From: Eledone cirrhosa
Lineage: Eukaryota
Direction of reading: 5' to 3'
DNA: 64,000 bases
Assembly: GCA_964016885.1 (NCBI GenBank)
Contig: OZ024748.1
Location: forward strand, 8,184,001-8,248,000
Shown: in pieces, positions 7,161 to 60,213 of the stretch
Layout: each line of letters begins with the position of its first letter
How positions within the stretch are numbered: the first letter of the stretch is position 1
Translations under genes and position numbers: made by a program
Notes under the pieces: model-generated
Seen by the model: only the letters and a program-made list of their open reading frames with translations
Told to the model about the DNA's origin: nothing
Databases searched by the model: none

Positions 7161-7789
7161 ATATAATGATAGATAGGCTTTCTTTACAATAATTAGAAGT
7201 TATAACCTCTGGAGGAGGTTATAACTAGCTTCAAATAATTTCCTAGTTATAACCGCTAATCAGTTTATTACGTATGAATCTAATTAATTTAAACTATATT
7301 AGGTATTTACTACAATTAATTAACTCATCCGGGAAATGTAAGTCGGGTGGTCTGGTAGAAGAAAATTAATGTTATCGTGTGCGAAGCTTTATAGAGGGGG
7401 GGTGAAGGTGTGGTTCACCTTGTCACTGTAGTTCCTGGTAATGTCATAAGGGGGCGCTGCAAAGAGATATATGGTGTTTCTTAGGGTATTTTAAGACCTT
7501 CAAGTCTGAATACAGCAGGTTTCTTGCCCAGAAGGAAGAGGGGGAGAGGAGGGAGAGAGGAGGAAGAGCAGGGGGAGGAGGAGGAAGAGGGAGAGAGGAG
7601 GAAGAGTGAGGGGTGAAGGAGGAGTATATATTAGACATAATTCTCAAGTAAAGATATATACTTAGTTAACACGAATTAGAGACGATATTAAATCATTCCA
7701 TATATTTAAAGGAAAAGCTTAGAATTAACACAGATTAGAGACGGCATTAAAATGTTCCATATATTTTCTATCAGGTAAAACGTATATAG

Positions 7790-8750
7790 GTAATACAGAT
7801 TAAAGACGGTATTAATATATATATATATTTCTCAGGTAAACCAACGTAGGTAACACAGATTAAAGACGGTATTAATATATATATATTTGTCAGGTAAACC
7901 AACGTAGGTAACACAGATTAAAGACGGTATTAATATATATATATATTTGTCAGGTAAACCAACGTAGGTAACACAGATTAAAGACGGTATTAATATATAT
8001 ATATTTCTCAGGTAAACCAACGTAGGTAACACAGATTAAAGACGGTATTAATATATATATATATTTGTCAGGTAAACCAACGTAGGTAACACAGATTAAA
8101 GACGGTATTAATATATATATATATTTGTCAGGTAAACCAACGTAGGTAACACAGATTAAAGACGGTATTAATATATATATATTTCTCAGGTAAACCAACG
8201 TAGGTAACACAGATTAAAGACGGTATTAATATATATATATTTCTCAGGTAAACCAACGTAGGTAACACAGATTAAAGACGGTATTAATATATATATATTT
8301 CTCAGGTAAACCAACGTAGGTAATACAGATTAAAGACGGTATTAATATATATATATTTCTCAGGTAAACCAACGTAGGTAACACAGATTAAAGACGGTAT
8401 TAATATATATATATTTCTCAGGTAAACCAACGTAGTTAACACAGGTTAAAGACGGTATTAATATATATATATTTCTCAGGTAAACCAACGTAGGTAACAC
8501 AGATTAAAGACGGTATTAATATATATATATTTCTCAGGTAAACCAACGTAGGTAACACAGATTAAAGACGGTATTAATATATATATATTTCTCAGGTAAA
8601 CCAACGTAGGTAACACAGATTAAAGACGGTATTAATATATATATATTTCTCAGGTAAACCAACGTAGGTAACACAGATTAAAGACGGTATTAATATATAT
8701 ATATATATTTCTCAGGTAAACCAACGTAGTTAACACAGGTTAGAGACGCC
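7790..8750. repeat. 58/60-bp minisatellite, ~16 near-identical units with an internal (AT)n
   Basis: Unit AGGTAAACCAACGTAGGTAACACAGATTAAAGACGGTATTAATATATATATATTTCTC. Confidence 0.95.
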
Positions 8751-9739
8751 TCGTTAGAAAAATATGCCAGAGATAGAACCAAAAAGATTTTAGTTTTTTT
8801 AATGAAGGAAGTGTTAATATAAAGCAGATAGAAGAGATCAGATAAACATTAACAAGATTAAAAGACACAAAAATATCTAACACTATTGGCCATTTTACAA
8901 ACAACAGTTTGGCAGTAAATTAAAGAAATGTTACTAAATATATCTGCCCGTTTCCAATGGTAGAAACCACATTAGACATTAGATATTGATGTTTTAAAAC
9001 ACTTACATAGATATTTACAGATTGAAGTTAATATTAAGGTAATAAAGTCCAAACATGTTTTGAGATATAAATACCAACCAATACACCTGATATTTATATT
9101 TACTACTTCAAGATATTCTATTTAATCGATTATTTTGAATACGTGCCAAACCAGATTATTGGTTATGTGCCATATCAATGTTTTGCAATTTAAAAGTATC
9201 CTCGAATACAATAGCTGTTAAAGACTTTTGACACCGAGAATGTTGGATTTTCAGGAAACCAGATTTGACGTTGATGAAAACAGGTCGGCTTTTCAAACAA
9301 TGAAGGTTTTGTTTTGTTTTTTCTCTATCTGACGAAATAGTACGTTTCCGTATCAGACAACTCTCGGATCTCAAATTTCTTCCACCAGCACCCCACCACG
9401 CGCTTTTATTCCACCACCCACCGCCCACTTATTAGATTTTATTAATCTATCTCCGGCGAAATTTTATTTTTAAGTGGTAACCTTCTTACGACAGTTAATT
9501 TTCTTTAGATATTAAAAAACATTTTACATGACAAAAAAGTACATTACTAGAAATCCTATTCGTTACAAATTAAATAAGATGGGTCGGGGTCTCAATATGT
9601 AAACTAAACGACTAATTCTGTTTTGTTTTTTTTAAATCAATGGAGACAACCTAGAAAAATTACGGATTTTTCAATGACATCCAATGACAAGCCAATATAA
9701 GAAGATAACAGGACAGTTACGAGAATAACATGTGTCATT

Positions 9740-14075: not shown

Positions 14076-15042
14076 TATATAAATTTGTATATATATATAT
14101 TTGTGCGTGTGTGTGTGCATGAGCATGTAATTGTGTGCATGTGGTTATATGTGTATGTATATATATATATGTGTGTGTGTGTGCGTGTGTATGTGTATGT
14201 GTGTGTGTGTGTACAGTACATGTAGTGTAGCCATTTATTATGAGAAATATTAAAACCTGGATTTATCTAATGAAAGAAACGAAGTAGAACCAGTATCATA
14301 CCTCTTTCCCATTCAATTCACATGGTGAGAGTAAACCTAACAATCTGGCAGACATTGTTCTCGGGATAAGGTCATTAATCCTTTCTTTGATTATATATGT
14401 TTAAAAGAAAAGCTATTATGATTAGACCTTCAATTGATTTGTCAGTTAATTATAAGAAGCTATGGGTAAGACCTTATGGAGTGTGGTAGTTCTAGTTGAG
14501 GATAATTTCTAATCTTACAACACACGAGATTACATCAGACTAATAAAAATATATTAAAAGACAAGATAAAAATTTTCCAGACATTATGACTGCAATTAAT
14601 TGATACGAACCAGCAATGTTGTGTCTTCATGGTCAATAGATATGTTAAAAATGGCAACCAAATCTTCCCTCAATCACTCCCTGCTGTCATGAACAAGGAA
14701 TTATAGTGTAGCTGTAAATTTGCAAAGCTCTAGAGAGTGATAATGGATGTTCTAATCATGACCATCCCTGTATAACATCAATAACTGTAACAACAATCAA
14801 TATATGTATTTATACATCCTTTTTCTCTCACAATCACAGCCACATGATAATAATAATGATGATAATGAAAATGATTGTGTACAGTGCTCAGGTGCACTAC
14901 AACTCATTAAAGGTGCATGTAAAGTACATAGAATAATGTAAAAATGTCAGGAAAGGGAACAGTGTATGAGTCATGATATAGACACAGACACACACACATC
15001 ACACATACATCACACCACACCACAACACACACACACATGTCC

Positions 15043-16115
15043 CGACAGCTAACAACTGATGCAGGTAGTTTGTTCCATGGAAGTGTTGAAGGATGCAGTG
15101 TCTCGACAGCTAACAACTGATGCAGGTAGTTTGTTCCATGGAGGTTTTAAAGGATGCAGTGTCTCGACAGCTAACAACTGATGCAGGTAGTTTGTTCTAT
15201 GGAAGTGTTGAAGGATGCAGTGTCTCGACAGCTAACAACTGATGCAGGTAGTTTGTTCTATGGAAGCGTTGAAGGATGCAGTGTCTCGACAGCTAACAAC
15301 TGATGCAGGTAGTTTGTTCTATGGAAGCGTTGAAGGATGCAGTGTCTCGACAGCTAACAACTGATGCAGGTAGTTTGTTCTATGGAAGCGTTGAAGGATG
15401 CAGTGTCTCGACAGCTAACAACTGATGCAGGTAGTTTGTTCTATGGAAGCGTTGAAGGATGCAGTGTCTCGACAGCTAACAACTGATGCAGGTAGTTTGT
15501 TCCATGGAAGTGTTGAAGGATGCAGTGTCTCGACAGCTAACAACTGATGCAGGTAGTTTGTTCTATGGAAGCGTTGAAGGATGCAGTGTCTCGACAGCTA
15601 ACAACTGATGCAGGTAATTTGTTCCATGGAAGTGTTGAAGGATGCAGTGTCTCGACAGCTAACAACTGATGCAGGTAGTTTGTTCTATGGAAGCGTTGAA
15701 GGATGCAGTGTCTCGACAGCTAACAACTGATGCAGGTAGTTTGTTCCATGGAGGTTTTAAAGGATGCAATGTCCCGACAGCTAACAACTGATGCAGGTAA
15801 TTTGTTCCATGGAAGTGTTGAAGGATGCAGTGTCTCGACAGCTAACAACTGATGCAGGTAGTTTGTTCTATGGAAGCGTTGAAGGATGCAGTGTCTCGAC
15901 AACTAACAACTGATGCAGGTAGTTTGTTCTATGGAAGCGTTGAAGGATGCAGTGTCCCGACAGCTAACAACTGATGCAGGTAGTTTGTTCCATGGAAGTG
16001 TTGAAGGATGCAGTGTCTCGACAGCTAACAACTGATGCAGGTAGTTTGTTCCATGGAGGTTTTAAAGGATGCAGTGTCCCGACAGCTAACAACTGATGCA
16101 GGTAATTTGTTCTAT
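15043..16115. repeat. 61-bp minisatellite, ~17.5 units, derived from the CR1 ORF2 end
   Basis: Unit CGACAGCTAACAACTGATGCAGGTAGTTTGTTCCATGGAAGTGTTGAAGGATGCAGTGTCT. Confidence 0.95.
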
Positions 16116-16198
16116 GCTTCAGCAACTCTGAGCATGAAAACTTTTTCCAAAAGTCATGGAAGCTGTACTGTTTTCTGATTTTGTAAGCATGTCTACAG

Positions 16199-16331
16199 GT
16201 GTTAGACACATGTAGTCCATGGGTGTTAGACACATGTAGTCCATGGGTGTTAGACGCATGTAGTCCATGGGTGTTAGATGCATGTAGTCCATGGGTGTTA
16301 GATGCATGTAGTCCATGGGTGTTAGACACAT
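16199..16331. repeat. 24-bp tandem repeat, ~5.5 units
   Basis: GTGTTAGACACATGTAGTCCATGG repeated. Confidence 0.9.
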
Positions 16332-24867: not shown

Positions 24868-25011
24868 TTATCTCTTGAATGGTGATCTAGAAGAATTGTC
24901 GTAAAGCTGTCTGGTGCTGAATAGTGAAACACCAAAACCGAAGAGAGATAAGAAAATAGCAGCTGGTACGATGAACTGGTCAACTTTACTACTGCTCGTC
25001 GAACCCTCCGC
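24868..25011 (-). CDS. 80-aa putative mitochondrial single-pass microprotein, last coding exon (AEGSTSSSKVDQFIVPAAIFLSLFGFGVSLFSTRQLYDNSSRSPFKR*)
   Basis: Acceptor tttatacag|, phase 0 matching the upstream exon, ~21-aa hydrophobic segment, TAA at 24870-24868, AATAAA at ~24700. Confidence 0.7.
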   Translation of the reverse strand, partial: AEGSTSSSKVDQFIVPAAIFLSLFGFGVSLFSTRQLYDNSSRSPFKR

Positions 25012-25789
25012 CTGTATAAAAAAAATTACATTTAGTTAAGAGAAAACCAAACAATTTTTAAATTTACAGTCAATATCACATAATTACCAACATTACTGCA
25101 TATAAGTGACTTTCCATTATCCCTCTAGCATATAACAATAGTCAACTGAAGAATGAACCTTGTACCACAACAGAGATAAGCCAACAGTTCTATATATTAG
25201 CACTATTAGAAGTCTACTTTTCTATTGTAAACACTGACAGATGTGGAACAATTTTTACTGATTTTTTTTTTTTTTTTTTAAATGGTCTCTGGCATTTATT
25301 TTATTTCACATCTAAATTTATAATTATTTTGTTATCAAGGACAGCAGCAGATTGGTAGAATTGTCAAAACATTGGATAACATGCTTTGGGCATATATGAT
25401 AGTTACAGCCTTTTATGTTCTGAGTTCAAATCCCACCAAAGTTAACTTTGCCTTCAGCCTTGCAGGATCGACTTTCCCCTTCCCTTCAAATTGGTGCAAT
25501 TTATATCAATTCTCCATCCTATAATTTTGGTAAACTTGGATACTGGCATATTTGTTAAAGAAAACTATTTTTGCAGCCAGATGAGAAAGATGAAAACGGT
25601 TGCTGTTTAGTCTCAAATTAGCCTAAAGAAACAAGAATTATGGTTGAAGCCATTCCTGATTATCCTATCTTTTTGAATACCTTAGACTATATTGTCCCAC
25701 ATTTCCATCCATTTTCTATACAATAGGGTGAATTTAAAACCAAGAGATTTAAAAACAAAAGGAAAACTGTTAATCTTTTCAACACTGAC

Positions 25790-25888
25790 CTGTGATATTT
25801 TTAATAATGGCAGAGCTGTTCGTGAAAACGATCGATAGAGAATGGAGCTTTTTCTCATCAACATGTTTGATCCCATTGCAGAAGCCAT
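25790..25888 (-). CDS. 80-aa putative mitochondrial microprotein, first coding exon (MASAMGSNMLMRKSSILYRSFSRTALPLLKISQ)
   Basis: Acceptor ttctattacag| with exon starting 25899, ATG at 25888, donor CAG|gtcagt; R/S/L-rich with no acidic residues, like a presequence. Confidence 0.7.
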
Positions 25889-26224
25889 TGAAGATATACC
25901 TGTAATAGAAATAAAACAACTGAATTTGAAGATTTTATAGCAATTTATTTCTGACAAGGAATATATTTTATAACAATATTGAATAAATACCAAATACGCA
26001 GGGTGTTTCTCCAGGGTGGCAATTGGTGACTAAACAGGCAACCCCACCAAGCTTAGTGAGGAGGGTGATTTTAGGACACCCTGCAGGATGAAAAATTGAT
26101 CCTGTTGAAGGATCAAGGAACTCAGGAGAATCAACAGTCATCCAATAGCATGTAAAAAGAAAAAAACCTACAGACATGCACTTGATAAGTCTTGTTGCTG
26201 AGTGCTGCACAGTAGGAAGGAAAA

Positions 26225-27293: not shown

Positions 27294-27535
27294 TTAATCC
27301 AGCCAGGATTAACACATCCACGTGGAGTCAAGTATGTTACAAACATTGAAATCCAGTCTCTCTTCTAATAGGAAGAGGCTACGTAGCCGGTAACTGTAAA
27401 ATGGATTCCAAGACTATGTAGCTGGTAAGAGTGTCAGACACCATGTTTGTCTACTTTGTAAGGACCGGCTACGTAGCCTATTACCTTGTAATATATTTCG
27501 GAAATCCTAAGAAGGATCACCAATGCTGCCTTTCT
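27294..27535 (-). other. 5'UTR exon of the mitochondrial microprotein gene with two candidate donors (exon ends 27485 or 27294)
   Basis: Acceptor ttttcttcag|; donors AAG|gtaata and TAA|gtatgt. Confidence 0.5.
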
Positions 27536-28599
27536 CTGAAGAAAATAAATAACAAACATCGTAATTCGATGTTTGTTTAATTTAGTAATGAAAGGAAACA
27601 GTCTGAATTATTTACTACTTCACAAAACAACTGATAAGATGTTTTTATTTATTTACTCATTATATATATATATAAGGATGAGTATTTAGACTTTATTTTA
27701 TTTTGAGTTAAGGCTCTATTGATTTTTCCCTGGATTTCACAAAATTATGTGGGTGAATCTATGTCTTGATTCTTTTTGAATTGAGTTTGAATTATTTTCC
27801 CACATTTTACGTTAACTATTTTTCCATTTTGACGTTATAGTCACTTATATATTATGAAATACTGTTAGCTTCACGCTCACAATAATTTCTATACTTTTCA
27901 TATATATATATGGCTTTCTGCTACAATATTTTCTGTACCTTTCATTTATACATATATATATATATATACACACATAGAAGCAAACACATTTACAAATTGG
28001 GTCGTTAAATTTTTGTACTGAATTCTTGGTAGGCTAAAATAGTTTGGACAATATCAAATTATTTAACGTTATTAAATTTAAAACAAAATAATTTAACAGA
28101 TAAACATGTTGGCCCGCGTCACTGAAAATATACTAAAATTACTGAAGAAAATAAATAACTATTTTAAAAGATAGTTGGCAATGAATATATATTTTGTACG
28201 ATATAGTTCTGTTATAAGAAATGGTAATATAGTCGATCAATTTAACGGCTAGAATATTGGTAGTAAATATAATCGATATTGAAATATGGAGTGATAGGTT
28301 TTGTGACAGAATATTTGGTATGTTCTTCCGAAAGAATTGAGAGCGATATATATTATTGTTTATACATTTGTAATGTTATTTATACAACTGTGAATAAAAT
28401 ATTTATTTATCAATAAGACAGAACGGGGGTAGCAGTTTCTGAGTTAATGAACCAAACACCTTTTAATATTTGGAATGATTTTAATCACCACAGGTCTACA
28501 TAAAAGATAGGCCGTGTTTTAAACTATTAAGTCGGTTCCAAAAATGTATACATATATTTATTAGAATGCTGCTGAAGTGTGTATACATATTTTTTCGGA

Positions 28600-28810
28600 C
28601 ACTAGGATAGAACTAAATTGGAACTGATTAGATCATTACTCAACAGAGTACACGATACTCGGGGTAGTAGAGTATGCTTATATTATAAAGAGTCGAGACC
28701 CGACGGCTGAGCTCTTACCGTTTCAACAGCTAGTTCCAGCTGGAATTAACTGTTGAAACGGCAAGAGCTCAGCCGTCTGGTCCCGACTCTTTATAATATA
28801 TATATATATA
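28600..28810. mobile_element. Penelope-like palindromic element (118-bp hairpin 28681-28798) next to (TA)n
   Basis: Near-perfect inverted repeat; homologous to 36741-36935 in the opposite orientation. Confidence 0.7.
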
Positions 28811-29224
28811 TAAAACTAGAAACTATGCAAAATATCTCCAAAATTCCTTAAATAACACCAATATACATAGACGCGATATTGTATATAAAACCATATCAAA
28901 GCATATGATACTATATAAAACTATATCTAACCACATAAAACAATATAAAAGCATATAAAACTATATCTAACCACATAAAACAATATAAAGGCATATAAAA
29001 CTATATGTAACCATGTGGAGTATTGATTTCCTCAAAGGTGCCCGGAACGATTTGTAAGGTGAAGGTCAGGAGACGACGATAACCGTTGATATACAGTGTT
29101 AGAAATGTCATTTAAGATTAAACCATACGTTGTTAATTACCTGATACAATATAAATACTTAATAAGATGTAGTTAATTAATTATATTAATTATATACAGG
29201 TAAAATAATAAGGAAATAACTTAC

Positions 29225-29280
29225 TACGCTGCTGCTGCTGGAAACGAGCGGCTCTGTTGATGTTTCTTACAGAGAAAGCT
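29225..29280 (-). other. Probable first non-coding exon of the mitochondrial microprotein gene
   Basis: Donor GTA|gtaagt at 29224, CpG-containing, directly downstream of the NRF1 motif; TSS approximate. Confidence 0.5.
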
Positions 29281-29282
29281 CT

Positions 29283-29294
29283 GGCGCATGCGCA
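29283..29294. promoter_or_regulatory. NRF1-type palindrome (TGCGCATGCGCC on minus strand)
   Basis: Matches the YGCGCAYGCGC consensus in otherwise CpG-poor DNA. Confidence 0.65.
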
Positions 29295-29399
29295 CAATAT
29301 TCATACATACGTACACACATACACATAGTCACACACACACATATATATATACATACAACACATTCACATATATGTAACAAAACGTCAGAGTGGCAGAAT

Positions 29400-30170
29400 G
29401 TACCCTGGGGGTAGGACATTACTTTGGGTAACCAGCCTGACAGGGTGACCTTGTGGTAGAACATTACTGTGAATAAAACCATTAAGGCCAAGAGACAATA
29501 AAGTAGCAGCCTGACAGAGGGTGCCCTGGGGGTAGAACATTACTGTAGAACCATTAAGGCCAAGAGACAGCAAAGTAGCAGCCTGATAGATGGTGACCTT
29601 GTGGTAGGACATAACTCTAGATAGAGCCCCTAGGGTCAAGAAACAGCAAAGTAGCAGTCTGATAGATGGTGACCTTGTGGTAGGACATTACTCTAGATAG
29701 AGCCACTAGGGCCAAGAAACAGCAAAGTAGCAGTCTGATAGATGGTGACCTTGTGGTAGGACATAACTCTAGATAGAGCCACTAGGGCCAAGAAACAGCA
29801 AAGTAGCAGTCTGATAGATGGTGACCTTGTGGTAGGACATTACTATAGATAGAGCCACTAGGGCCAAGAAACAGCAAAGTAGCAGTCTGATAGATGGTGA
29901 CCTTGTGGTAGGACATAACTCTAGATAGAGCCACTAGGGCCAAGAAACAGCAAAGTAGCAGTCTGATAGATGGTGACCTTGTGGTAGGACATTACTATAG
30001 ATAGAGCCCCTAGGGTCAAAAGACAGCAAAGTAGCAGCCTGACAGAAGGTGCTCTGAGGGTATGACATTACTGTAGATAGAGCTTTTAAGGCCAAGAGAC
30101 AAAGTAGCAGCCTGACAGAAGGTGCCCTGGGGGTAGAACGTTACTGTAGCGCCATTAAGGCCAAGAAACA
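29400..30170. repeat. 76-bp minisatellite, ~10 units
   Basis: AGAGCCACTAGGGCCAAGAAAC recurs at 29699, 29775, 29851 and 29927. Confidence 0.95.
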
Positions 30171-31269
30171 GGCACGGAAAGACTGGATAAATAAAGGCAG
30201 CAAAGATTAATACCAAAGAAGAGAAACTAGACAACAGGTCAAAGAGGCTGGAAGCAGAAGGTTTACCAATGTTCTGCAATGTGAGAAGTGAGAATCAAAG
30301 ACATGAGGTGTTTTATCCAGTGCATTACTGGTACTTTATTCTATCGACCCCGTAAGGATGAAAGGCAAAGTCAACCTCGGCAAAAAAATAATGGAGCAAG
30401 GGAGGTAACCTACTTTCGGTCATAACACAAACGTTACGACTTCTCTCAGAAGTTTTCTACGGTATGTTTATAAACGTGGAATTTCTGTTTTTATTTTTCA
30501 AATATATATTCTGTTTCACATATATTTTTCGCAACCACTCCATACCGTTAGTTAAATAGCAAATCTTAAATATGCTCTGGACAAGATGACAAAAACGATG
30601 TGACAAAGAACAGCCAGCGATATCTGTTGTACCAGCCACTGCACCTGATAAACCTCGTTCTTTGTGCCAACAAGTTGGCAGAGGAGAGCGGTATTTAGGA
30701 ACCAACAACATGGGAAAACTCATCAGTAATATATTTTGTCGTTAATGACTGGTATTTATTTTTTATCTATTGTTTTTTTTTTTGCAGGAGTAACTCTTTG
30801 AATAATGGTCGAAACTATAAAGTTTGCATCCTAAACTAATTCACTTCCTATGTCACTTTCCTGACATTTGTACTTTATTCTTGCATGCACATTTGATGAG
30901 TTGTAGTGCACCTGAGCACTGTACACAATACTTTCATTATTATTATTATAATTGTCCTAACACTAAGGTCAAGTTTTAGGAGGGGTGGAAACCATTGTGT
31001 CCAGTGTAATACGATCATATGAAGCAGAGGTGTTTTGGTGTTATTCAATCTGTGGCTAACATTTGAAACTGTACCAATTGTACCAATCCATTTCTTGGCG
31101 GCACCTGTTTAGCTTCTGATAATAATATTCTCAGTATAAATATATAAAGCTAAGTTTATTATGTAACAACAGTCAGGTAATGTTTACTATTACTTAGTGA
31201 ATACTAACAGAAGTAGTTGTTTAGAGTTGATAGTTTTAACATGCTTGGAATAACTAGGACGGATATAAT

Positions 31270-36740: not shown

Positions 36741-36933
36741 TAGGAAAAAGTATGACCCCGACAGCAGAGCTCAAGCCGTTTCGATAGCTATTTCTAGTCC
36801 AGAAATAGCCGTCGAAACGGCTTGAGCTCTGCCGTCGGGGATCATACTTTTTCCTATTACCCACTCTACTACCCTAAGTATTGAGTACTCTGGTGCGTTA
36901 TGGTCCATCTGGTTCCTTACCACAATTCCTTCG

Positions 36934-36935
<2 letters not shown>
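36741..36935. mobile_element. Penelope-like palindromic element (116-bp hairpin 36741-36856) between (TA)n arrays
   Basis: Near-perfect inverted repeat; homolog of 28600-28810. Confidence 0.7.
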
Positions 36936-36975
<40 letters not shown>

Positions 36976-46925: not shown

Positions 46926-47003
46926 TTGCAGTGGGAGGGTGTGGGGGCATATTGTCTATATGCTATGACAGTTACATAGATAAAACACCCATGCAACATG
47001 TAT

Positions 47004-49856
47004 TCATCATCATCATCATCATTTTACGTCAGCTTTTCCTTGCTTGCAAGGGTGGGACGGGTCTTATTCAACACAGCATCTCTCCACTTGTCACGGTCCT
47101 TCGTCATATCCACCATGAGCTTCAGCGATCTGAGGTCTGTTCTCACCACCTCCGCCCATGTTTTTCGTGGTCTACCTCTACCACGTCTTCCTTCAACTGG
47201 CATTTCCTGGCACTTCTTCACCCATCGGTCATCCTCCATGCGCATCACATGTCCATACCACCTCAGTCTCCTCTCCTGTACACTACATTCTATCCCTCTC
47301 AGACACAGTTTCTCTCTCAACACATTCATGCTGGGTCGTTCACAACATTGACACTGCATATCCAACGGAGCATGCTTGCCTCATTTCTCTCCAGCCGTCG
47401 CATATCCTCTGCAGTTGCTGCCCATGTCTCACTACCATGCAGCATCGCGCTCCTCACACAGGCATCATATAACTGGCCTTTCGTACGCGGGGAGAAACCC
47501 TTCTTCATCAGCAGAGGAAGCAGCTCCCTAAACTTCTTCCAACCATCCTTATTCTAGATACTATGGCCTCGGAACACCCCCCTCCCATGCTAATCTGATC
47601 TCCTAGGTACCGGAAGCTATCCACCACTTCTATAGCACCCGCCTGCATTTGAAAAATGTGTCTATCAATGCGACTTTTACTATCTAATTTCCCTGTACAT
47701 CTACTGCATACATATTTCTCCCTACCTGTCAGTTTACCTGCTATCCCGCTACATCTCTTGTGTACCCAGGATCTGCATTGTGTGCATTTTATAGAATTTA
47801 TGCCAGTTCCTTTTCTGCATATTGAACATCGCCATTTCCCTGATGGAATCAGAGTTTTGTCTTCTTTTCTACTCATCAACACTTTTGTCTTAGCTAGGTT
47901 CACTCTCAGTCCTCTTGCTTCCAACTGCTGTTTCCATAGCCAGAATTTATTCTCTAGCTCCTCTACTGATTCTGCTATAAGAACCAGATCGTCAGCATAG
48001 AGAAGTTCCCATGGAAAGCCAGTCTTAAACTCCTCTGTTATGGCTTGGAGGACTATAATGAACAAGAGCGGGCTGAAGACCGAACCTTGATGTACTCCTA
48101 CCTGTATCTGGAACTCCTCACTAAACTCCATTCCTACCCTGACTTTACTGACAGTACCTCTGTACAAAGTTTGCACTGTCCTCACAAGCCGTTCCTCAAC
48201 ACCTAGTTTCCTTAGGGACCACCAGATGACAGATTGGGGTACCCTATCAAAGGCCTTCTCTGGGTCAACAAAGGCTAAGTATAGTGGCTTATTTTTCTCT
48301 AAGAACCTCTCTTGCAATTGTCTCACCAAGAAGAGGGCATCTGTTGTACTCTTCCCAGGCACAAAACCAAACTGTATCTCATCTAGTTTGACCCTTTCTC
48401 TAATTAGTTGTGCTAATATCCTTTCTGCCACTTTCATAACCTGATCCATCAGTTTTATACCCCCTATAATTGCTCCTCTCCAGAGCATCCCCTTTACCTT
48501 TGTAGCAATTTATGAGAATACTGCTGCACCAGTCTTTGGGTATGATACCACCATATATAGCCTGATTGATGATGCGTGCAACCAGTTTAGTGCCTACGTC
48601 CCCTGATGCCTTCAGCATCTCAGCAACTATTCCCGATGGTCCAGCAGCCTTACCATTTTTCATTTCTTTAATTGCCTCTTGGACCCTATATTCGTCAATC
48701 TCAATAGCTGGTCCCTCTGTTGGATCTACTGAAGGTAATTTCTCTCTCTCTAATTCGTTCTCCACATTCATCAGTGTCTCATAATGACATTTCCAGGCCT
48801 CCTTTTTCTGATCATTCGTGACATTAAGTACACCGACATCATTCCGGACACATTTATCTCCAACAACATCCTGATTTGCATTGACACATTGCCTTGCAAT
48901 GTGGAACACCGCACGCCTCTGATCTTCCCATCGCAGAACATTGGCAAACCTCCTACTCTCAGCCTCCCTGCATGCTAAGTACACCTGACGTCTAGCTTCT
49001 CTCTTAGAGGCTGTATATTCTTCCCTACTCCCACCCTTTTTCCAAGCCTTCCATGCTAGTCTTTTGTCTCTAATGGCCTTATCTACTGTGCTGTTCCACC
49101 ACCAGGTCACTCTGTCTGGTTGGAGCTCTGCTCCAGCCACAAGTTTCATCAGTAGCCTGCAGTAAGTTGTCACGTAAGAAATTCCAGTTATTATCTATGT
49201 CATACGTCTCTAAACCGTCTTCTTTTTCGTCATACACATCTTGAAGGGCTTTCCTAAATTTGTATTTTAGTGAAAGCTCTTTTAGCTTCCAGACCTTTCT
49301 TCTCCACACTTTCCTGTATGTCTCATTCCATCTCTTGCTTACTGAGATATCACTAATGACTAACCTATGCTGTGGGGTACATTCTTCCCCAGGGTATGCC
49401 TTGGTATTAGACACTATCTGCCTGTCCCGCTGCCTAACTAGTAAGAAGTCAATCTGGCTTATGTGCTCGCCAGATTTGTAGGTTATTAGGTGGTTGGCAG
49501 GTTTCTGGAAGTTTGTGTTGCAAATAGTCAGTGTACTTGCATCACAAAATTCAAGAAGTCTCAATCCTTCATTTCTTGAGCCGTAACCACGCCCACCATG
49601 TACCCCAGTGTAACCATCCTGGAGCTGTCCAACATGACCATTGAAGTCCCCTGCTAGCATAACGATGTCTCCGTCCTCTGTCATTGCGGTTGTTTGTAAA
49701 AGTTGTTCGTAAAAGCAGTCTTTCTCATCTTTGCCTAGGCCTGCTTGGGGAGCATAGGCAGAGATGATTGTCAGTAGTCTCCTGCCTACAATTAATCTAA
49801 GCTTTAATTATTCAATTACTAACTCGAACTACCTCTATTGTCTTATTGATCCATCT
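47004..49856 (-). mobile_element. 5'-truncated, frameshifted RTE-type LINE (APE endonuclease, reverse transcriptase, Cys-rich finger) in PRRC1 intron 6
   Basis: GDFNGHVG, SQIDFLLV, QHRLV (APE); QFGFVPGKSTTDA, GVHQGSVFSP, LYADD (RT); RLRWYGHVMRM; (TGA)n tail; reading frame split across several ORFs. Confidence 0.95.
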
Positions 49857-58300: not shown

Positions 58301-58861
58301 GTTCGTTGTTTTTATTATTCAATATGTTTTTGTTTCTAATGATGTTTAACAAACATTTTATTACACAGTAAATATGTTACTCTCAGTTTATTTCAAAACA
58401 ACCAGGAAATTACTAACTTTTTGCTCCATAACTCTAAATATATATATTTATTATATGTTGATTGTCTCTGTTAACCTCTCACTACTAATCTCTGTCCTCT
58501 AGCAATGAGTTTTCTCATCTTTATATGTATTTATTATTATTTCGTTGTGAATCAACATTTCCGGTCTTACAGCATAGCCACCTCTTATGTAAAAAAATTA
58601 ATATAAGTAAGACAATAATATAATCCAAACTAATGTATTCCAAATTAGGTTTAAGTGTTAGGTTTAATTCATGTTTTTTATTTGTAGATTTAAGGTTAGA
58701 TGTTACGACCAAGGTTAAAGTTAAGTGTTAAGACTAAAATTAGGGTTACGGTTTGGTATTAGGGCTAGAGATAAGTAAGTGTTAGGACTAGGGTTAGGGT
58801 TAATTCAGGTTTTCTATCGATCAAATTCTTTAAGAAGGTAGTGCTTGAGTCTCGATAAATG

Positions 58862-59876
58862 TTCCCAGTAGATGCTATGAAATGGTTGGCATTAGGAAGG
58901 GCATCTAGCTAAAGATACAATGCTCCCAGTACATGTAAAGTGGTTGGTGTTAGGAAGGACATCCAGCCATAGAAGCCATGCTCCCAGTACATGCTGTAAA
59001 GTGGTTGGCATTAGGAAGGGCATCTGGCCATAGAAACTATATTCCCTGCACATGCTGGAAAGTGGTTGGTGTTAGGAAGGGCATCTGGCCATAGAAACCA
59101 TGCTCCCAGTACATGCTGGAAAGTGGTTAGCATTAGGAAGGACATCTGGCCATAGAAACCATGCTTCCAGTACATGCTGTGAAGTGGTTGGCATTAGGAA
59201 GGGCATCTGGCCATAGAAACCATGCTTCCAGTACATGCTGTGAAGTGGTTGGCATTAGGAAGGGCATCTGGCCATAGAAACCATGCTCCCAGTACATGCT
59301 GTGAAGTGGTTGGCATTAGGAAGGACATCTGGCCATAGAAACCATGCTCCCAGTACATGCTGTGAAGTGGTTAGCATTAGGAAGGACATCTGGCCATAGA
59401 AACCATGCTCCCAGTACATGCTGTGAAGTGGTTGGCATTAGGAAGGGCATCTGGCCATAGAAACCATGCTCCCAGTACATGCTGGAAAGTGGTTGGCATT
59501 AGGAAGGACATCCAGCCATAGAAACTATACTCCTTGTACATGCTGGAAAGTGGTTGGTGTTAGGAAGGGCATCTGGCCATAGAAACCATGCTCCCAGTAC
59601 ATGCTGGAAAGTGGTTGGCATTAGGAAGGACATCCAGCCATAGAAACTATACTCCTTGTACATGCTGTGAAGTGGTTAGCATTAGGAAGGGCATCTGGCC
59701 ATAGAAACCATGCTTCCAGTACATGCTGTGAAGTGGTTGGCATTAGGAAGGGCATCTGGCCATAGAAACCATGCTCCCAGTACATGCTGTGAAGTGGTTA
59801 GCATCAGGAAGGGCATCCAGCCATAGAAACTATACTCCTTGTACATGCTGGAAAGTGGTTGGTGTTAGGAAGGGCA
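58862..59876. repeat. 61-bp minisatellite (~16.5 units) derived from a SINE segment, in PSMD3 intron 1
   Basis: Unit TGCTCCCAGTACATGCTGTGAAGTGGTTGGCATTAGGAAGGGCATCTGGCCATAGAAACCA. Confidence 0.95.
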
Positions 59877-60213
59877 AATTTTGTCTGAGTACACTTTTTC
59901 TTTAACAATTTGTCATTAGCTTAACAGTATTTAAATTCATTATTACATGTTATACATACCTCTATATACTGTATATATAATACATCATTCATATGGAAAC
60001 CTGCAGTATCAATGTCACATATATAGTCTTACTGGTACATACTGTGTTAGACGATCAACTAACGAACGAGTTCTTGGAATGGAACTCGTTCATAAGTTAG
60101 GGACTTACAATGCTGTATATATTTTCTGAATTTTCTTGTTTCTAATTTTTATCCTTTATTTTTGTTCTTTAACTTTGTCCCCTGAAAGTAAGTGTCTATT
60201 ATATTTATTTCAG

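Follow-up and report, generated by a model that had tools for sequence, protein, structure and literature searches.

A palindromic half-hammerhead in the genome of Eledone cirrhosa, probably built from two 5′ run-off cDNAs of a Hydra-clade Penelope-like element

A 118-bp hairpin at positions 28681–28798 of a 64,000-nucleotide stretch of Eledone cirrhosa DNA (GCA_964016885.1, contig OZ024748.1, positions 8,184,001 to 8,248,000; hereafter the window) carries the 3′ half of a hammerhead ribozyme on each of its strands, and raises the question of how a ribozyme could have lost one half and acquired an inverted copy of the other in its place. An earlier note, made from the sequence alone, proposed that the hairpin derives from the hammerhead of a Penelope-like element (PLE) and that template switching at stem II had made it symmetrical. 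The first proposal holds, as long relatives carry the full ribozyme together with a PLE open reading frame (ORF). For the second we substitute another origin, to which we give a probability of roughly 0.7: the hairpin would consist of two run-off cDNAs, made by reverse transcriptase (RT) on a capped RNA of a Hydra-clade PLE, ending in loop II of the hammerhead and joined head-to-head. How PLEs, the closest retroelement relatives of telomerase, form their inverted ends and what role their hammerheads play are presented as open questions in the literature (PMC8557442; PMC3846280), and the interest of the locus lies in a family-wide mechanism rather than in a single hairpin within a host gene.

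The hairpin is symmetrical about a centre between positions 28739 and 28740, with five mismatches between its arms, and its existence is borne out by folding: the segment 28660–28820 has a minimum free energy (MFE) of −94.2 kcal/mol (z −15.3; equalled by 0 of 200 shuffles), and the host-gene strand over the hairpin one of −96.2 (z −19.9). As had been described, the plus strand reads GAAA (28755–28758), a stem III of 5 bp whose loop is palindromic, and the triplet GTC (28775–28777), with a mirror image on the minus strand at 28724–28702; this half-motif alone (GAAA, four further pairs and UH) was found by chance in 0.6% of 20,000 arm shuffles. The other half of the core, CTGANGA, is absent from both arms (its closest match within 28001–30500 is at position 28142), and the sequence and alignment of the arms confirm that an inverted copy of the 3′ half stands in its place. 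Being without the CUGANGA half of the core and without the 5′ strand of stem I, the hairpin falls outside the definition of a type I hammerhead and is predicted, as the earlier note supposed, not to cleave itself. Other parts of that description need correction. The hairpin is not the whole unit, which spans about 196 bp (28603–28798), lies in TA-rich surroundings and comprises two head-to-head arms and a one-sided tail of about 78 bp; the same tail is present in long copies of the family (L085, L086, L100 and L108). In the apparent stem II, the 3′ strand of that stem pairs with its own inverted copy, and the half-motif is indeed found on both DNA strands, but the sense strand of the host gene is the minus strand only.

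The search for relatives with CTGANGA upstream of the arm, which had been suggested as a check, recovered parent copies: in the subfamily of the locus, the core lies 25–50 nt upstream of the arm in 50 genomic copies and in none of a reversed control. Among 30 such copies inspected, 23 carry CTGANGA and four TTGATGA, and 20 share an identical 63-nt span; the 5′ strand is present for stem I as well as for stem II, and in stem II it is complementary. The true spacing was revealed by one long-armed copy; it exceeds the 6–36 nt of another search, whose 46 matches (30 viewed) proved to be insertions at the centre or joins to other elements, and not parents. At the expected site, the core is of the C3-G8 type in 24 of 30 long copies of the older subfamily, to which the locus belongs, and of the U3-A8 type, a variant known in Schistosoma PLEs (PMC4209133), in 51 of 55 long copies of the younger sister subfamilies. 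When 24 long copies and the window arm are aligned, 84.8% of the cells of the hammerhead stems are paired, compared with 26–54% in slid controls, and the double changes, which amount to few between-lineage events, are C3-G8 (15) to U3-A8 (8) and an A-U to G-C change in stem II. A young copy folds as a three-way junction. Judged by sequence, the long parent copies conform to the type I hammerhead, with a C3/U3-U-G-A-N-G8/A8-A core, GAAA, UH and stems I to III.

The long copies also identify the parent element. In the subfamily of the locus they retain ORF remnants 1.0–2.0 kb upstream that are 53–57% identical to an intact ORF (L113 and L115; those of L115 are 55% identical to residues 352–640), and no intact ORF occurs in this older subfamily among the copies found. 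The intact ORF, of 717 amino acids, was found in a tandem array that comprises four and a half 3,531-bp units of almost identical sequence (L151/L152, G000:C1:437198500-437218000), and a protein search of the genome gave 72,699 candidates with many identical young copies among them; this family is very young and possibly active. The ORF starts 213 nt downstream of GAAA and carries the motifs RWR (37), DKT (117), CNCPDRSIC (572), CNLCSEE (670), LLNK (687) and CKH (698), with no CCHH (no CCH/CCxH). The features reported for the Hydra clade, namely RWK-type and DKT motifs, a CxCx5C linker, CxxC and CxH flanking E and N, and no CCHH (PMC8557442), are all present in this ORF. The protein had no match in Pfam and PDB sequence searches, and its nearest homologous clusters carry HTH_animal, GIY-YIG and RVT_1 domains. 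It is a single ORF of less than about 3 kb, combining an RT with a C-terminal GIY-YIG-type endonuclease (EN), and the family prefers (TA)n insertion sites. On the motif list and the homologous clusters, the parent is assigned to the Hydra clade of PLEs, and the subfamily of the locus belongs to the same lineage, as its long copies have the same tail and arm together with the ORF remnants. Many identical open frames of 784 codons are present elsewhere in the genome.

A genome search with the hairpin gave 2,197 candidates, and all 40 that were scored are whole hairpins; the copy at the locus is about 10% diverged from its relatives. Exact arm words number at least 461 for its subfamily (23-mer) and at least 40,209 for the sister subfamilies (22-mer). 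A typical copy consists of a pair of arms with a one-sided tail of about 78 bp, and is bordered by (TA)n. In position-ordered samples, 88 arms of the subfamily of the locus (88 of 100 listed rows) comprised 55 in short head-to-head pairs, 21 solo and 12 long, and 108 sister arms comprised 81 short head-to-head, five solo and 22 long, four of the 22 being asymmetric joins; a few arms are counted twice. Each of the 40 distinct loci of two-arm sister hairpins (41 rows, one locus appearing twice) has one tail and no more, and the same is true of all 11 kb-long head-to-head insertions whose two outer ends could be seen; tails were counted in these two sets, labels of partner tails elsewhere being unreliable for tailed anchors. 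The 40 hairpins show 39 distinct junctions, many junctions show short microhomology, and the two arms of a hairpin share subfamily variants far more often than expected (0.98 observed versus 0.52). On the evidence of these differing junctions, concordant arms and single tails, the hairpins are formed anew at each insertion, as the smallest members of the known inverted insertion of PLEs, in which a 5′-truncated copy lies head-to-head with another and the tail is one-sided.

Small, palindromic, TA-flanked repeats in such numbers could be taken for a miniature inverted-repeat transposable element (MITE), that is, a self-amplifying palindromic DNA element with a mere resemblance to a hammerhead; such an element would multiply as a unit, have the same internal junction throughout and symmetrical ends, and descend from a parent with a DNA transposase. 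This is scarcely credible for a family in which the parent is an RT–GIY-YIG element with a full ribozyme, the tail is asymmetric and each copy has its own junction, and the full-core relatives together with the differing junctions refute it, barring a transposase that binds these ends, so that the possibility raised in the earlier note of an ordinary MITE falls away. The copies also differ from non-LTR retrozymes (LTR, long terminal repeat), which are tandem monomers with a complete hammerhead in each (bioRxiv 10.64898/2026.07.22.740005), as a single head-to-head unit of half motifs without tandem complete hammerheads.

The positions at which the arms stop are the evidence that bears most directly on how the hairpins were made. 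In the subfamily of the locus 76 of 88 arms stop short, and in the sisters 86 of 108, with ends ranging from 5 to 24 nt upstream of GAAA and a mode 17–18 nt upstream, at the A of TCAGT/TTAGT in loop II, which we take to be an initiator-like motif. An extra G follows 11 of the 17 arms ending at −18 in the subfamily of the locus and seven of the 37 ending elsewhere (p 0.0017, tested against one single template), and none of 40 long copies has a G at that site. In the genome as a whole, both arms carry the G in 264 palindromes, against seven with A; in 46 the G follows ends that lie one base farther inward, mostly with longer fillers. Extra G residues at the 5′ junctions of full-length L1 copies have been attributed to the cap (PMC11702581). 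Seven of 33 inspected copies have their 3′ end further downstream (+154 to +339), and all seven start at −18 to −21, two of them exactly at −18 with G; since copies primed further away stop at the same place, the limit would be the end of the template and not a limit of length.

It is against these ends that a structural stop has to be weighed. RT could stall at stem II of an intact hammerhead on a long RNA and the cDNA fold back and prime itself, a scheme in keeping with the clustering of stops just 5′ of the 3′ strand of stem II, with the short microhomology at many junctions and with the snap-back documented for R2 proteins (PMC11371274). Nevertheless we consider it unlikely: one folded cDNA cannot place a terminal extra G on both arms, as in the 264 cases above, nor pair a tail-less long arm with a partner that consists of tail only; stalling would not add G at one specific position, and kb-long arms cross stem II freely. 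Tail-less arms with tail-only partners occur in six insertions (L200, L201, L219, L232, L234 and L251), and these, together with the palindromes with G on both arms, require two separate cDNAs. The template switch at stem II proposed in the earlier note gives way on the same grounds: the turn lies in loop II, where the arms meet a sharp limit upstream and carry the cap-like extra G.

An origin from two run-off cDNAs would proceed as follows. Transcription would start at the A of TCAGT/TTAGT, 18 nt upstream of GAAA, so that the 5′ end of the RNA would hold the 3′ half of the ribozyme only. At a cut (TA)n site, RT would extend both ends of the break from two internal start points of the element, yielding a first cDNA of about 60 nt from end site 1 and a second of about 140 nt from end site 2; these cDNAs would then lose between 0 and about 13 nt from their 3′ ends, which would be joined through microhomology or a short filler to give the palindrome. 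Both arms at the locus end at −15, which would correspond to a loss of 3 nt per arm, with no G left, inside the normal range of trimming. For a Poseidon PLE, two internal RT start sites and cleavage of both target strands have been described in vitro (PMC11167929), and the same two properties would account for the rule of one tail per insertion. Head-to-head geometry is also explained by the published proposal, based on rotifer Penelope structures (PMC3846280), that PLE palindromes arise by self-priming on an antisense transcript; it is improbable here, as it predicts neither that an extra G of the sense strand should recur at one set position nor that each of the 40 hairpins should have exactly one tail, and a PLE RT uses sense RNA in vitro, with two internal starts (PMC11167929).

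Several observations weigh against an origin from two run-off cDNAs, or against the hammerhead itself. A capped RNA 5′ end inside the hammerhead is something that we infer from the arm ends and the extra G, and in the sister sample the local test for an extra G falls short of significance (9 of 15 versus 22 of 50, p 0.38). The arm ends are spread over 5–24 nt, many of them have parent-like bases and lie 1–6 nt beyond the proposed start on its upstream side, and the locus itself carries no G. All 26 viewed copies with a whole unit downstream cross −18 and reach −60 or beyond, and just three of 200 read-through repeats have G at −18, the other 197 keeping the parent base; the long copies would thus need a template without an end at that place, such as a circle, a multimer or an efficient jump. 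A simple jump from the cap to the 3′ end for all templates is unsupported as it stands, given these copies. As regards the ribozyme, the covariation of positions 3 and 8 is one event between lineages and the search patterns themselves required such cores, two decayed parents fail to fold into a hammerhead by MFE alone, and none of the Rfam hammerhead models gives a match to the hairpin or to any of five parent loci.

A broader proposal, which we regard as tentative and somewhat short of an even chance, is that Hydra-clade PLEs begin transcription within their own hammerhead, producing a capped mRNA with a half ribozyme, harmless as such, at its 5′ end and a whole one at its 3′ end. The 41 nt that separate the start site from the cut site would then be a retrovirus-like terminal redundancy. 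RT would prime twice near the 5′ end, giving strong-stop cDNAs, and long or tandem copies would form if a cap-free template were reached, either by a jump to the self-cleaved 3′ end or on a circle made by the ribozyme; otherwise hairpins would remain, as for about four arms in five here. If true, one design would account for the pseudo-LTRs and the tails, for the inverted ends and for what the ribozyme does, and a single element would be the source of some 10^4 intronic double-stranded RNA hairpins in a heavily RNA-editing animal. The smallest insertions of the family would record the RNA 5′ end base by base, which makes the predicted start site precise and the two-primer model testable, and the intact young family in the same genome is a source of protein for such tests.

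The architecture of the insertions and their ribozyme are features already known from PLEs (PMC8557442, PMC4209133, PMC3846280). The Hydra clade of C-terminal EN+ PLEs (Craig et al., 2021, PMC8557442), which includes Hydra-1_Obim, has the same ORF motifs and (TA)n targets and, as here, a hammerhead in the terminal repeat, an inverted 5′-truncated copy and a one-sided tail. The present family differs from Hydra-1_Obim, whose hammerhead has a short stem II and a 4-bp stem III, and in the length of its tail (78–83 nt, versus 30–40 in that study); most of its insertions are arms of 60–140 nt ending at one site, whereas the relevant passages of that paper describe no start site or cap signature. 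Two 11-nt arm motifs are absent from the text of its supplement, as searched by terms. PLE hammerheads are likewise of type I with a short stem I and a long stem II (Cervera and de la Pena, 2014, PMC4209133), and share with ours a palindromic loop III, the U3-A8 variant and motif pairs on opposite strands; those pairs are whole motifs 100–700 bp apart, whereas the present arms keep the 3′ half only, and stem III here is a stable 5 bp, unlike the motifs of that study. Poseidon_Ac (Frangieh et al., 2024, PMC11167929) has two internal RT starts that define the tail, cuts and extends both strands, and uses uncleaved RNA as template. It belongs to a different clade and its ORF begins inside the ribozyme, in contrast to the downstream start here; the parts of that study consulted report no 5′ run-off hairpins. 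A palindromic Harbinger MITE of Xenopus is also a self-folding repeat, abundant in a highly editing animal and targeted by ADAR (PMC5625713); unlike it, the hairpin described here is retro-derived and made de novo, and the likeness as regards ADAR is by analogy. Our literature search, which covered the supplement of PMC8557442 by terms only, found no PLE start site inside a hammerhead, no cap signature and no run-off hairpins.

LTR retroelements make minus-strand strong-stop DNA. Like this DNA, and with an end at the cap as for the L1 cap G (PMC11702581), the cDNAs proposed here would be short, primed near the RNA 5′ end and ended at the cap; unlike it, they would have nicked (TA)n DNA as their primer, at two sites, and would enter the genome as palindromes, with no tRNA primer and no LTR integrase.

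Some variants of the terminal region were recorded in their own right. Several copies of the sister lineage (L076, L079 and L205) have a C3-A8 mismatch in the core, possibly as inactive ribozymes that still transposed or as intermediates between C3-G8 and U3-A8. About seven tandem 299-bp units of the terminal region of the young family (L360, G000:C2:356029786-356032023) each have a complete U3-A8 hammerhead with a loop II shorter by about 21 nt, and resemble a retrozyme-like derivative of the same PLE. Two head-to-head insertions consist of tandem units of 273 bp (L361, G000:C3:214146458-214148222) and 257 bp (L362, G000:C1:27009448-27010174), which run from −39 or −21 to +235 and lack the core; they are read as the result of copying a short RNA without a ribozyme several times over. 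In L361, variants are common to alternate units, as if from a two-unit template. At five loci (L021, L027, L040, L045 and L066), these arms have beside them, or joined to them, another element, whose hammerhead is minimal (core, long stem II and GAAA-TATATA).

The copy at the locus is a decayed passenger with no sign of function. In the host pre-mRNA it would form a near-perfect 59-bp duplex unable to cleave itself and at most a passive ADAR substrate; such passive editing is plausible by analogy, palindromic repeats being strong ADAR targets and octopus editing very high (PMC5625713). This duplex within a transcribed gene region, and the heavy editing of octopus and of palindromic repeats (PMC5625713), could also be read as a co-opted regulatory RNA of the host gene, either a microRNA-like precursor or a trans-cleaved switch, but this is highly improbable: the copy has decayed like the others, to about 10% from its relatives, all Rfam microRNA matches are far under their gathering scores (the best at 44 bits against a cut-off of 91), a trans duplex cannot outcompete the hairpin, and no contig of run X3 covers the hairpin at 98% identity. 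Cleavage in trans by a CUGANGA-bearing RNA of the parent, which had been suggested, is disfavoured because opening the hairpin costs 31–34 kcal/mol and pairing with the parent 5′ half gains 16–19, and because on the host strand the complement is transcribed before the half site.

Table 1. Features of the insertion, of a related insertion and of the host gene in the window (+/−, strand; a dot, no strand).
Positions	Strand	Feature	Basis
28740..28798	+	Arm without a tail; 3′ portion of the terminal repeat of the PLE, running from a point 15 nt upstream of GAAA as far as end site 1; contains stem II 3′ strand, GAAA 28755-28758, stem III, GUC 28775-28777 and stem I 3′ strand	Alignment to long copy L100
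28681..28739	-	Inverted arm that bears the tail; same segment, here on the host-gene sense strand; GAAA 28724-28721, GUC 28704-28702	
28603..28680	-	One-sided tail, element sequence from end site 1 to end site 2; outer end decayed	
28799..28812	.	(TA)n target remnant beside the tail-less end	Sequence
36742..36936	.	Second hairpin-plus-tail insertion, sister subfamily (U3-A8 parent type), (TA)n at both flanks	
24870..25010	-	Host last coding exon, 47 codons	Spliced to the preceding exon in an X3 contig
25789..25900	-	Host coding exon downstream of the hairpin	5′ boundary deduced from the sequence

The features of the locus are listed in Table 1. The window is AT-rich animal DNA in which a contig of run X3 joins two host exons across a minus-strand GT..AG intron (25010/25789); these contigs behave like RNA, as the spliced contig indicates, but reveal no transcript starts, strands or editing. 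Both exons match an uncharacterised octopus protein, the last one at 89% identity, and the host protein has no Pfam match. The hairpin lies upstream of both joined exons on the minus strand, and the exon upstream of it that a position in intron 1, as given in the earlier note, would need was not seen joined in the X3 contigs. Two candidates on this strand, likewise not seen spliced in those contigs, are a possible additional exon with good splice signals (27294–27536) and a candidate first exon (29223–29300) that carries a GCGCATGCGC motif, presumably NRF1-like. Elsewhere in the window, a long interspersed nuclear element with frameshifts retains endonuclease and RT remnants (47000–49800, minus strand), and minisatellites occupy 29400–30180 (76 bp period), 14916–16250 (61), 58810–59965 (61) and 7760–8870 (58).
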